Positions 15,321-21,300 of a stretch of DNA of 64,000 bases are shown piece by piece (position 1 is the stretch's first letter; each line of letters starts with the position of its first letter). A model generated the notes under the pieces. The model ran no database searches. It had not been told where the DNA came from and worked only from the letters and a program-made list of their open reading frames with translations. The DNA comes from Chrysomallon squamiferum. Lineage: Eukaryota; Animalia; Mollusca. The stretch spans positions 13,268,001 to 13,332,000 of the forward strand of contig CM022679.1 of NCBI GenBank assembly GCA_012295275.1, written 5' to 3'. Made by a program: the position numbers and the translations under genes.

Positions 15321-18300
15321 ATGGCGATCCCCACAGGCAGTGTTATTCGTAGCTTCTGCTCTCAACTTCTCAGACAGCAAACAAAAACATGTTTGTGTTC
15401 AGTGACAGCTGCACCAATTCGACATGTGTCTAGTGGTGTGTGAATTAATTTTATTTATTTTGCATGACATTCAAAATAAATTAGATGAAACTGTTTCCAC
15501 ATGTAACTTTTTTGTAAGGTATCAAAGTTTCAACACTGATTCAATAATGCTAATATAATACCTGCACAATTCTTTGCATTAAATTATTAAAATAAGAATA
15601 TATATTTATACATCGGGACTTACATCAGTAATTATTTGCTAGTAATAGCAGAATGAACAAAATCGCAGTTGATTCTCTCTCTCTCTCTCTCTCTCTCTCT
15701 CTCTCTCTCTCTCTCTCTCTCTCTCTCTCTCTCTCTCTCTCTATATATATATATATATATATATATATTTTGTGACATTGTTAAACAGTGCACTGTGACA
15801 TTAGTGTTAAAGTAAGTAACACTTACCAGTGAAGAAGATATGCTTGGAGGATAACCAGATTTGGTAAACCAGAACTATTGCATAATAATTTTGTTATACG
15901 TGTCCACAGACAGCATAATATAACTAAGACACATAGATATCTGTGTAAAATACAAATTTCACCAGCACTGCAAAATAAGTTTATTATCTATCAAACAAAA
16001 TACAAACTTGAGCTTTTGCCATAATCATATTTTAATCAGTCAAATTTTAAAGTCCTGTTGCAGTTGCATTACATTAAAGTCCTTAATGATAAATGGCAGA
16101 AAAAAAATCATTCCTCCATCATGAAAATTAACATATTTACCAAAACTGGCATTACCATTTGGTTTATATTTTTCCAGGAAGTTACGAGTACATCATTGTT
16201 GATAAAAAGGGTGAAAAGAAAAATGTTGGATACATTCAACTGAATCGTCCAAAAGCTCTGAATGCTTTGTGTGATGCATTGATGCTGGAGGTGACAAAGG
16301 CACTTGATGAATTTGAGAAGGATAAAACTATTGGCTGCATTGTTCTGACTGGCACTGAGAGAGCTTTTGCTGGTCAGTTTGTTTTTAAATGATATTTCAA
16401 ATAATTAAACATTTGCTATTCAGAAAATAAAGAAATGCTTCTGATGTGAACAGCATCAAAATGTACGTGGTAATGATGCAGTGATTAAAACAAAAATTAC
16501 CCTACCTAAAATAACATATTACTACAGCTGTTAAAAGTTTTTCTTATACTCTTTCTTTTATGTCCCTCAGACAATTTTCTTTTCTTGGCATTGTTTTTTT
16601 TATTTGAAACTATTAACAAGTTTTGCTAAGATGTGAATTTGTTTTGCTCGATATAGCTGGAGGCATTTTTAGGGTTTTTTTTGTCTTGTACTTGCAGCTG
16701 GGGCAGACATTAAAGAGATGCAGAACAAGACATTTTCTGAGGTTTTCGGGGGAAATTTTCTTAACCACTGGTCCAGAGTATCGGACTGCAGAATGCCAGT
16801 TATAGCAGCTGTTAATGGGTTTGCAGTATGTAATGCTTTGTCAACTGCTTTGTCCAATAACAGCTTGCAGTGCTGAGATAGTAAATAAGAATATAAGAAT
16901 TTTTTTTTTTTAAATTTTCACTATCAACTTTCAGAATATAACTATCTTACAAGTAAATTTTTCCTTATCACTTTTTCTTTCAGAAACTGACTTAAACAGA
17001 ACTTACTTTTAAGTTTCATCTTGCAGATAATATTGTTAATGGCTTCAGATTGTGCTTATTTTGTTGTGGATTAAATTTCTGAAGATTTATTTCAGTTTTA
17101 CTGTTAGCCATGGGTTTGTGTTAAGTACATGGATTTTTTTAGTTGTTCTGGACTTTTTTCTTTTTTTTTAAAGTTGATGCTGGTTCATGGATTTAATATT
17201 GGTTTCTTTTGTTGTTGTTGTTGTTTTTGTTTTTTTGCCTAATTGTTATCAGTGTGGTTTTCATAGTTAACAGAATATTTGTGACTTAGAGAGAAGACTG
17301 TTCAGATGATAATGATGAATGTACTGATTAATCCATTAATTGCTGTTGGTCAGATATCTCAACATAAATGAATTCACTTTAGTTTAGCTCTGATAGTTTT
17401 CCCCCAAATACCTGATGCTGAGGAGTATCTGTTGCACCAAAATTTGGCACTGTAAAGGCACATTTGAAGTGTCTTGTTTTTGTTAATTTATAATATATCT
17501 GTGATATGTGCTGTCATGTTTTTGAAATGGGTGTACTTAATTACTGCATCCTTCTTGTCATGGATACAAATATATTGCATTGTTAATCTGTATATTCTTT
17601 TTATTATTTGTATTATATATTTTTTTTTTTTTTGTTTACCCTTATCAAACTCCCCTTATCCTTTTTTTTGTGTCTTAATAAGAAGCTTGTTTAATACATT
17701 TATATAATCTGTACAGGAAAGGATAATTGTGTAGCATTTAATGATAAAGAGATATAAAATAATGTTAGGTACAGTACTTCTTTGCAGGTTCCTTTAAAAT
17801 ATTTTTGATTTCAACAGTGCTCCAAGATTGAGTTGTCAAAATCATTATTTTGTCTAGTCTGCATGAAGAACCATATAGATATTAACATTAACAGTAACCT
17901 TTAAACATACAAAAGAAAACTCCCTCTCTTTGATTGTTACAAATATATAAAAAGTATGTGAATAAAAGGAACATGTTTAACAGTAGTATTGAAATAAACT
18001 GCACATAGGTTTGTTTATTCATTCAGCACTTATAAGAACATTTGACACATAATGAAAACAATAAAAATTAGTGGAGATGATGATTAAAAAAAAAGTATAC
18101 TTTTCTTTTGTTTTTCTTTTTGTTCATTAAAGCTGCCCATAGCACCAAAAGACACATATATTATTAAACTGGGAATTGTTTGTGTCGTTTCAGTTGGTGC
18201 AGATATTGAAGAAATGAGACACAAATCATTTAAAGCTCTTCATGTCACTGACTTTCCTTCAGCACTGTCAGCTATCACCCATGCTAGATTACCTGTAGTA

Positions 18301-21300
18301 GGTGCAGTGAACGGATATGCTGTACGTAGTGGTTTATTAGTTGTTTTTCAATGAAGAAATTAATACTGTCACAGTTTTTTTCTGTTACAACTCCAGCACT
18401 TGATAATTGTAACAACTCAAGTGAACCAAAGATGAGACCACTGGGTTTTATATTGCATTCCACTCAGTGCCTGCAGTTTGATGTATCATAGGCCATAGTT
18501 CACATTTCTCTGCTTTTAGCTAAAAGGAAAGTATAAAAAATAACTTGCTGTTAATTAATAAGACTGTATCGAGAGATGTGATGTCAGTGGGTTTCTTTTC
18601 TGTTGGTTAAGCAAAAATCAAATGATTGGCCTTCAAACAAATATTTCATTTATTTCCAGCAGTATTTTTTTATTTCATCCAAAGAATGAAGATGAATGAT
18701 TTAATTAGATGTGCTGCTGCTTCTGTACGTTGTTTACTAAACAGTGTATTCAGGTGCAGCTATTTTTACTACATTTCTTATATATTTGGATATATTTTAT
18801 TTCTGGCCCATCTTTTCCAGTAAATATTGTGATGACAAAGACAAACAAAGAATAATTAAATCACTGGCTAAGTTATTGCTGGTCGTTAACTTTGCTTATA
18901 TTTCCAGAAAAGATATTTTGCCACATCTGTTAGTTAATTCATTAGAGCTTTTTTAAGGGTTTTTTTTTTTTTTTTTTTTTGTCTTACTACTGGTGATGAT
19001 GCTATGCATGTACTTCCTTTTCTGTAAAATTTTACTTTTTGGGATTAAATGAAATTCATATCTGCACATTTATTGTTTATCTAGGAGAAATAATACAGCT
19101 GTTTAAATAATTTGTGTAAATCTCAGCCTGCAAGTTTGTTCTTGGCTGAACTTGGATAGTTAAAATAACAGTAAAAGTAATAGTATTTTCTCATCAACTA
19201 ATACTAGCTTTTGTTACAGTCGGAGATGACATTAAAGAAATGAATCAAAAACATTTCCTTGATGTTTTTCAAACTAATTTCCCATGTGCCTTGGACAGTG
19301 TAGCCCACTGTAGGATACCTGTGGTTGCTGCAGTTAATGGATTTTCTGTACGTTTTCATTTTTAACCCTTGCCCAGATAAGAAAACATAAAAATATAAAA
19401 ATAATAATAATAAAAAAGACAAATCATCTCAGAATAATTTAAAGAATTTTCTAAATAATACATTATTCAGTTTTCTGAAAATATCCTTTCATTCTAAGTA
19501 TTTCATCACATGTGGGTTCAACAAGATTCTTCCTTTCATAATTTTTTGAAGAGAAATATCTATCCCATTTGGATATTATTTAATCATAAAGTGGATAAAC
19601 CTAGTCTTTTTATAAAATTATTGCAGATTATATGTCAGTAATGTTTTTTTAATATAAATATAATTTTTTTGCATTTTACTTTTTCAGTTAGGTGGTGGGT
19701 GCGAATTGGCCATGATGTGTGATATAATATACGCTGGTGAGAAAGCTAAATTTGGACAACCAGAAATACAACTTGGTACAATTCCTGGTTAGTATCTTTC
19801 TTTGATGTATCATGTGCTGTACTCAAATATCAGATGCGCATGTGTGTGTGCATTCGTGAATTAATTTTTGTGTGCAGTCATGTGTACTGGTGTGAATCTC
19901 TCTTTTATATTTAAAATTATGTAGATATGACACTGAACAAAACTTGCATATCTGTTTGTAGTTGTATAAATTCAAGTATTAAATGGTAAATACTTTAGAA
20001 TGGGATATGATTAGTCAGGACAAATAGTTAATGTGACAGTGGCCTTGATTATCCTTAAGGAGTAGATTAAATGATAATTCTTAAGAGTAGACTATAATGA
20101 TAATTTCCTGCTATGTTGTATGGTGATAATCATTATTTATGTTTGTCATTCAGTCTGGCTGGCTATCTACAGACATTTTGTAAACTTAACTGAAAATGTT
20201 AAAATTAGATTGTCAGTTAAATCATTTTACTTAGTTATTCATTTTTTTATTTTTGTTTTTTTTTTTTTTTTTTTATTACAATTTTTTTTTTTTTTTTTTT
20301 TTAATTATTTTTCATTTTCAATTTTTAACTGATGTTGATTTTAGGTGCTGGAGGAACACAGAGACTCATTAGATCAATAGGAAAATCAAAAGCAATGGAA
20401 ATGGTTTTAACAGGAAACATGATAACTGCACAGGAAGCAGAAAAAGCAGGTTTGAAATTTGTCAGTTTTTAAACAGAAATTTTTGTACGTTACATTAGTT
20501 TTGCTTTATGCTGTTTGATCTCTGATATTTATATATACTTTTATTTGTAAATGTTTTATTTAAATATTTTCTTCTTTTTTTTTACAATAAAGGACTGGTT
20601 AGTAAAGTATTTGAGCCAGGATCTGTTGTAGATGAGGCAGTGAAATTGGCTGAAAAAATTGCTGGTTACTCAAAGCTGGTTGTAGCTATGTGTAAAGAAT
20701 CTGTCAATGCAGGTAGGCAATTTCTGTGACAATGTTTTTTTAAATTTTACCCATTTGTTGTGAAAAAATAGGTAATTAAATTAATGGTATGAATAGCTAT
20801 TTAAATACAGTTAATGCAGTATTGTGTGACCATTTTGTTTTGTTTTTCTGTCATCAGTCTTGCACTATATAATGAAGCCCTTGAGTAGTCATGTATAAAT
20901 GTCTCCTTTTTTTAATTTTTTTTTTTTTTTCAAATTTTTTTGTAGTTGCCTTTTCTTTTGTTTCCTCATCTTTTTTTTTTTTTTAGATTTGCATCATACT
21001 GAAAAAAATATTTATTTTCGAAAACATTAAAATACTTATTAATACACAATCAGTCGGTAGCTTGTGGTTCATTTGGTTGTCTGATTTTCTTTCAGCAAAT
21101 GAACTGACACTGAAAGAAGGACTTCATTTTGAGAAAAGAATATTTCACAGTACATTTGCTACAGTGAGTTCACTTTATAAAATAGGATCCCAGAAATTAG
21201 CTTCACATCACAGTAGAATAATTTCAAATTTTAAATATCAGATGTCAAGTATTTCCTGTTTCTGATATAATCTTCACAAAAAACTGTTCCTTATATTACA

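Follow-up and report, generated by a model that had tools for sequence, protein, structure and literature searches.

The window analyzed here is a 64,000-nucleotide stretch of the Chrysomallon squamiferum (Mollusca) assembly GCA_012295275.1 (contig CM022679.1, positions 13,268,001 to 13,332,000 of the forward strand), and all coordinates below count from its first nucleotide. The DNA is eukaryotic and rich in A+T (21-43% G+C per kb), and carries on its + strand, at ~15.3-21.8 kb, an intron-containing gene for an ECHS1-type mitochondrial enoyl-CoA hydratase. Exons were defined by open reading frames and GT-AG borders. Between the constitutive exons 2 and 4 of this gene lies a cassette of three homologous exons, 3a, 3b and 3c, and the gene has four more exons. 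Two short intronic segments, arm A in the 3a-3b intron and arm B in the 3b-3c intron, are complementary to each other and bracket exactly one alternative exon, 3b (Table 1). We tentatively read this complementarity as an exon-looping stem that would favour the skipping of 3b.

Membership of the gene in the ECHS1/crotonase group is indicated by exons 2 and 4-7, which are 85-100% identical to a protein named by NCBI "enoyl-CoA hydratase, mitochondrial-like" (P0002, 298 aa, from Gigantopelta aegis; 92%, 100%, 100%, 85% and 86% identity for exons 2, 4, 5, 6 and 7, respectively). All three exon-3 variants encode the same 42-residue segment (GADIKEM to AAVNGFA), with 43-55% amino acid identity to 3a. 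The four donors are all GT and U2-like (GTCAGT, GTATGT, GTACGT and GTACGT), and the acceptors are all AG. With introns of 1368 nt (3a-3b) and 898 nt (3b-3c) and uniformly U2-like GT-AG borders, exclusivity through steric hindrance or U2/U12 incompatibility is unlikely, which agrees with the sequence-only reading of this locus, where the introns had been judged too long for plain steric exclusion.

The two arms pair through 24 base pairs at -32.1 kcal/mol (RNAduplex), including one G-U pair (16863-19135), a 1x1 mismatch (U16858/C19141) and two 1-nt bulges (U16871 and U19137). This is the duplex that the sequence-only reading had described, and its positions were verified. The arms are also, as that reading held, G+C-richer islands in A+T-rich introns: each has 46% G+C, compared with a mean of 28% for 26-nt windows in the cluster introns, and falls in the top 3.7% of such windows. 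Support from RNA and DNA was drawn from Logan contigs of four RNA runs of one study (X1-X4) and of one DNA run (X5). Arm A is unchanged in a DNA contig (X5, record 17) and an RNA contig (X1, record 2), and arm B is unchanged in a DNA contig (X5, record 24). No second copy of arm A was found within the window, no extended homology was seen around either arm, and the DNA contigs that carry the arms have base depth (~47), so an origin of the arms from a transposon or a duplication is unlikely. Their derivation by tandem duplication was rejected, since the intron flanks of 3a, 3b and 3c share no alignable similarity. A search of positions 16000-20000 against Rfam gave only two sub-threshold matches, far under the gathering scores. 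Directly 5' of arm B, a 16-nt A+U-rich element (19102-19117) could pair with an internal segment of exon 3b (18224-18239; 15 of 16 bases complementary, BLAST E 0.024).

To compare the strength of the pairing with chance, all pairs in the four cluster introns were searched against each other from 7-nt seeds, and arms of 31 nt were scored with RNAduplex. None of 150 dinucleotide shuffles of these introns reached the real value of -33.6 kcal/mol (null mean -22.9, standard deviation 2.4, best -30.4), and neither did any of 150 shuffles made within 26-nt blocks, in which the G+C islands are kept (mean -22.0, standard deviation 2.0, best -28.3). A comparison with dinucleotide shuffles had been proposed as a check in the sequence-only reading. 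Apart from this duplex, the best pairing in the real cluster introns reached only -24.5. When real sequence served as the background, 24 clustered pairs with an energy of -26 or lower were found among same-strand pairs separated by 60-3400 nt in the 64 kb. The duplex was the second strongest of these, and another pairing of similar strength (-31.0) lies elsewhere in the window. Adjusted for the fraction of the search space that the cluster takes up, this background suggests a chance of a few percent. The strongest pair in the 64 kb is a perfect ~24-bp inverted repeat at 34634/34826 (arms ~190 nt apart, -42.6 kcal/mol), which may be a small foldback element.

Table 1. Exons and pairing segments of the ECHS1 exon cassette (window coordinates).
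Feature	Position	Strand	Support and remarks
ECHS1 exon 2, constitutive	16178..16372	+	Open reading frame and translation; RNA joints 15434->16177 and 16371->16697; AG/GT borders; U2-type donor GTCAGT
Exon 3a, 128 nt, canonical variant (GADIKEM...AAVNGFA)	16698..16825	+	RNA joints exon 2 to 3a and 3a to exon 4; homology
Exon 3a 3' end, local alternative partner of arm A	16797..16819	+	Global minimum free energy fold; hairpin also pairs the 3a donor GU
Arm A CCAATAACAGCTTGCAGTGCTGAGAT	16854..16879	+	In the 3a-3b intron; starts at intron position +29 after the 3a donor
Exon 3b, 128 nt, duplex-enclosed (GADIEEM...GAVNGYA)	18194..18321	+	Open frame; AG/GT borders; similarity to P0002; RNA contigs joining across 3b
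Arm B ATCTCAGCCTGCAAGTTTGTTCTTGG	19120..19145	+	In the 3b-3c intron; separated from exon 3c by 74 nt
Exon 3c, 128 nt, divergent variant (GDDIKEM...AAVNGFS)	19220..19347	+	Joint exon 2 to 3c in one X3 contig
Exon 4, constitutive, catalytic region	19688..19787	+	Joints 16825->19688 and 19786->20344; 100% identical to P0002

The RNA contigs, which tend to drop rare forms, contain the joints from exon 1 to 2, from exon 2 to 3a (X1, X3 and X4), from 3a to exon 4 (X1, X2 and X4) and all of the downstream constitutive joints. The joint from exon 2 to 3c was seen in one X3 contig at depth 3.2, with 29 nt on the exon 2 side and 0 mismatches. Exon 3b is crossed at 16825->19688 in X1, X2 and X4, and at 16371->19219 in X3. 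Together with the equal exon lengths of 128 nt, the joints to and from the variants point to homologous exons that are arranged in tandem and used singly, and the alternatively used three-exon cassette proposed in the sequence-only reading is borne out by them. No joint between two variant exons, no 3a to 3c joint and no backward joint was seen in the contigs of the four RNA runs, which is weak evidence given that rare forms drop out. Exon 3b was neither covered nor joined in the RNA contigs of these runs, all from one study, and this is not evidence of its disuse. An apparent joint 15594->16898 (X2 and X3) was set aside as a repeat artefact, having just 21 nt on one side and lying beside a T-run.

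The reading frame separates the possible products sharply. Inclusion of exactly one variant gives a protein of 298 aa, inclusion of none leads to a stop at codon 114, and inclusion of any two or all three leads to a stop at codon 153. Because every product with zero or multiple variant exons is frame-shifted and stops prematurely, the reading frame, presumably together with nonsense-mediated decay (NMD), is sufficient for the exclusivity of the mature ECHS1 products. In the available sections of PMC6071210, such a rule is described as feasible only where exon length is not divisible by three and the cluster has three exons at the most; this is the case in the ECHS1 cassette, which also resembles the exons policed in this way in that aberrant combinations carry a premature stop. 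This is a surveillance account of exclusivity, and it leaves the duplex unexplained.

Predicted folding depends on how much sequence surrounds the arms. In two-fragment cofolds with 80-200 nt of context, the A-B pairing wins by 7-10 kcal/mol (-53.0 vs -45.8; -86.1 vs -76.5), with core pair probabilities of 0.94-1.0. Both arms also have local partners. In the global minimum free energy (MFE) fold of the cluster, arm A (16853-16875) pairs with the end of exon 3a (16797-16819) and arm B folds on itself, for which a weak local hairpin (19123-19128/19144-19149) is possible. The hairpin in which arm A pairs with the terminal 23 nt of exon 3a (16790-16890) has a predicted energy of -28.6 kcal/mol (z -1.65), with 13 of 200 shuffles as stable, and the donors of 3b and 3c have no equivalent (z -1.14 and +1.60, respectively).

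We consider it possible, with some reservation, that the A-B complementarity acts as an exon-looping stem. The transcripts joining exons 2, 3a and 4, and those joining exons 2 and 3c, cross 3b, and arm A starts 29 nt downstream of a donor while 74 nt separate arm B from the next acceptor. Were the stem to form in the pre-mRNA in vivo, exon 3b would probably be enclosed in a loop of ~2.2 kb and its skipping favoured, which would narrow the choice to 3a or 3c; the distances to be bridged between exon 2 and 3c, and between 3a and exon 4, would fall from ~2.85 kb to <0.6 kb. In published cases, exons enclosed by such pairings are excluded and a neighbouring exon is favoured, according to the available text of PMC6071210, and both exon-surrounding stems and exon-excluding loops are described for srp and Dscam (PMC4691838 and PMC6071210, as far as available). 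Repression of 3b by looping would follow the model of the stems that surround exons in srp and of the upstream variants that are looped out in Dscam exon 6. Mis-joined products would probably be removed by frame and NMD, so that exclusivity would be policed mainly in this way and not by the stem. The stem may itself be conditional, through the local pairing of arm A with the end of exon 3a and the local hairpin of arm B, and a conditional stem would fit the annotated use of a 3b-type exon in Gigantopelta aegis. With more reserve, we suggest that a single stem between two internal introns, placed at the usual positions of selectors, might silence the middle exon of three while frame and NMD police exclusivity, which would be a new layout.

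As expected of exon looping, arms are found in both introns flanking an exon, with a stability beyond background; the contrary control came from arm-centred shuffles, and this and several other results weigh against the exon-looping stem. When arm A was searched against shuffled 6.5-kb pre-mRNA, one of 40 shuffles gave a partner at -35.2, stronger than the real -33.9 (for arm B none of 40 was stronger, the best being -28.7). The antisense strand pairs nearly as well (-31.6 vs -33.9), leaving no RNA-strand signature. The MFE structure of the 3315-nt cluster (-718.0) lacks the A-B stem, and forcing it costs 13.7 kcal/mol, fold predictions being unreliable at such lengths; with ~290 nt of context in the two-fragment cofolds, the core pair probability falls to 0.02-0.06. 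The ECHS1 stem belongs to the internal-internal class of intron pairs, for which the survey in PMC6071210, in its available part, finds no enrichment in known clusters (p 0.45), the pairing excess there being between outer and internal introns. A 3b-type exon is used in the one annotated protein of Gigantopelta aegis, the nearest named relative, so silence of 3b is not general. Finally, DNA of a second individual (X5) has 18 substitutions in 957 nt of intron (~1.9%) and none in the 52 nt of the arms, where zero is expected about four times in 10 and is uninformative.

Chance complementarity between two G+C-richer islands, with no function and with exon choice left to splice-site strength, protein factors and NMD alone, has to be taken seriously and seems only slightly less likely than the exon-looping stem. 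It would account for the stronger partner among the arm-centred shuffles, the absence of strand asymmetry, the absence of the stem from the global MFE fold and the stronger and similar pairings found elsewhere in the 64 kb; the geometry is not that enriched in known clusters, and exclusivity is accounted for by the frame rule alone. It is harder to reconcile with the two sets of all-against-all shuffles, in one of which the G+C islands were kept, with the gap to the next real pair, and with the placement of the arms near a donor and an acceptor around a single alternative exon. Arm A could instead be part of a switch at the 3a donor, pairing either with the last 23 nt of exon 3a, with the donor GU paired, or with arm B. 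After transcription of the stretch upstream of 3c, arm B would then release the 3a donor or set the timing of its use. The global MFE fold contains the required local pairing, the hairpin includes the donor, and A-B displaces it in short-context cofolds, but the hairpin is ordinary when compared with its shuffles and is without a counterpart at the 3b and 3c donors, and we regard such a switch as unlikely.

The sequence-only reading had assigned arm A as a docking site and arm B as a selector, with competing structures enforcing the choice of one exon. The duplex is strong, and the position of A just after a donor and of B just before an acceptor is like that in Dscam exon 6 (PMC4691838, available sections), but this assignment is very unlikely on the evidence collected here. 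In the accessible parts of PMC4691838 and PMC6071210, the docking sites known so far lie in the intron adjoining a constitutive exon, and these articles and PMC4174434 give this location, together with several competing selectors, as the hallmarks of such systems. Both ECHS1 arms are internal, and no pair involving the intron between 2 and 3a or between 3c and 4 beats the shuffle null; nor does any other pair of cluster introns, the next real pair being -24.5 against a null mean of -22.9. No second selector rises above chance: the next partners of arm A (-26.2, -25.4 and -23.9) and of arm B (-27.1 and -25.0) are within what the null gives for a target of 6.5 kb (mean -24.5 for arm A and -23.6 for arm B), and -26 was reached by 8 of 40 shuffles for arm A and by 3 of 40 for arm B. 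A candidate at 18463-18483 that resembles arm B by eye was rejected, as it lies outside the top eight partners of arm A. The pairing would also bring two variable exons together, and with the 3a donor beside the 3c acceptor, frame-shifted 3a-3c joining would be favoured, so the stem would break exclusivity and not, as had been proposed, enforce it. Such joining might in principle be the purpose of the stem, yielding a message subject to NMD and hence less enzyme, or 3b might be back-spliced into a circular RNA. The proximity of the 3a donor to the 3c acceptor and the bracketing of a single exon by flanking inverted repeats would suit these non-productive outcomes, and the message with 3a and 3c does stop at codon 153, but neither kind of joint appears in the four RNA runs, a weak argument where contigs drop rare forms, and we hold this explanation to be most improbable.

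Elsewhere in the cassette, an inverted pseudo-exon was considered from intronic segments complementary to the end of 3c (17330-17343, -27.5) and to its interior (17448-17463, -28.1), and was discarded as unproven (BLAST E 0.29 and 1.0, respectively). The segment at 17330-17343 is complementary to the end of exon 3a as well. Intron 1 of ECHS1 contains a microsatellite at 15690-15760, in which (GA)n is followed by (TA)n.

The three variants differ in how widely they are found among protein relatives. For exon 3a, 234 of 274 candidates match at E <= 0.001, identity to the ECHS1 proteins of distant animals reaching 81%, and the Pfam family PF00378 (precomputed) is present on all of the 120 exon-3a matches listed. 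The 3b peptide has a single database match, P0002, whose exon-3 region is 71% identical to 3b compared with 48% to 3a and 52% to 3c. The identities across the exons mark Gigantopelta aegis, a deep-sea vent gastropod, as a fairly close relative of the source of the window, and the presence of a 3b-type region in P0002 indicates that this type of exon is older than the split from the Gigantopelta aegis lineage. The 90% identity cluster of P0002 has one member, and no 3a- or 3c-type isoform of Gigantopelta aegis was present in the collection searched. Searches with the 3c peptide gave no word-sharing candidates and 10 representatives at E <= 0.001, all with <= 57% identity, and no 3c-type exon was found elsewhere in them. 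When metagenomes were scanned with the exon 2 peptide, 80 loci came up, none above 69% identity, and the relatives found have a single exon 3. Among the 14 loci tabulated, two (L001 and L006) have exon 2 and one exon 3 split by an intron, two (L003 and L007) match exon 2 alone, and the other 10 are uninterrupted. The variable segment, GADIKEM-AAVNG, presumably corresponds to the lining of the CoA/acyl pocket in crotonase structures, and the ECHS1 isoforms may therefore differ in substrate preference. At 19333 in exon 3c, the DNA run X5 has A in place of G, which changes the Val of AAVNG, otherwise invariant in 3a, 3b and 3c, to Ile; the X3 RNA contig has G.

Long-range RNA pairing is the main mechanism proposed for the choice among tandem alternative exons. 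To our knowledge, almost all of the tested cases are from insects, together with a few vertebrate genes. The published systems are compared here as described in the available portions of the articles cited. The ECHS1 arrangement is reminiscent of the bidirectional pairing at Drosophila srp exon 4 (Yue et al. 2016, PMC4691838; PMC6071210), where long-range stems between introns each surround one alternative exon in a small tandem cluster and pairing strength biases exon use (PMC4691838), although ECHS1 has one stem only, which spans the middle exon and has its two arms in internal introns. Dscam1 exon 6 (Graveley 2005, via PMC4691838 and PMC6071210) is similar in having one element shortly after a donor and the other before an acceptor, with the exons in between looped out and skipped. 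It differs in that 48 selectors compete for its docking site, which lies downstream of the constitutive exon 5, whereas in ECHS1 the upstream exon is itself variable, there is one partner only, and the approximated exons must not join. The 14-3-3zeta exon 5 cluster (IE1, IE2 and IEa; Yang et al. 2011, via PMC4174434) likewise has three exons, and its IE1 resembles arm A in occupying the intron that follows the first variant, but IE1 and IE2 are duplicates competing for a common element (PMC4174434), and no second copy of the ECHS1 arms was found. In human ATE1, a gene for an enzyme and a non-arthropod case, several intronic elements (R1-R5) surround the mutually exclusive exons 7a and 7b (PMC7797038); competing pairings (R1 and R4 for R3), a 30-kb stem, conservation and experiments are reported there, whereas ECHS1 has a single predicted pair.

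The ECHS1 exon cassette itself seems to be unreported, since in full-text searches neither mutually exclusive exons of ECHS1 nor a tandem exon duplication in enoyl-CoA hydratase turned up in any article, and publications on mutually exclusive splicing, molluscs and RNA secondary structure included none on ECHS1, as judged by their titles and the beginnings of their abstracts. If the stem works as proposed, it would provide a case in a mollusc and in a housekeeping metabolic enzyme, with a layout that is not enriched in the clusters surveyed in the available part of PMC6071210. Control by RNA structure would then extend to a mitochondrial beta-oxidation gene outside the arthropods and vertebrates.

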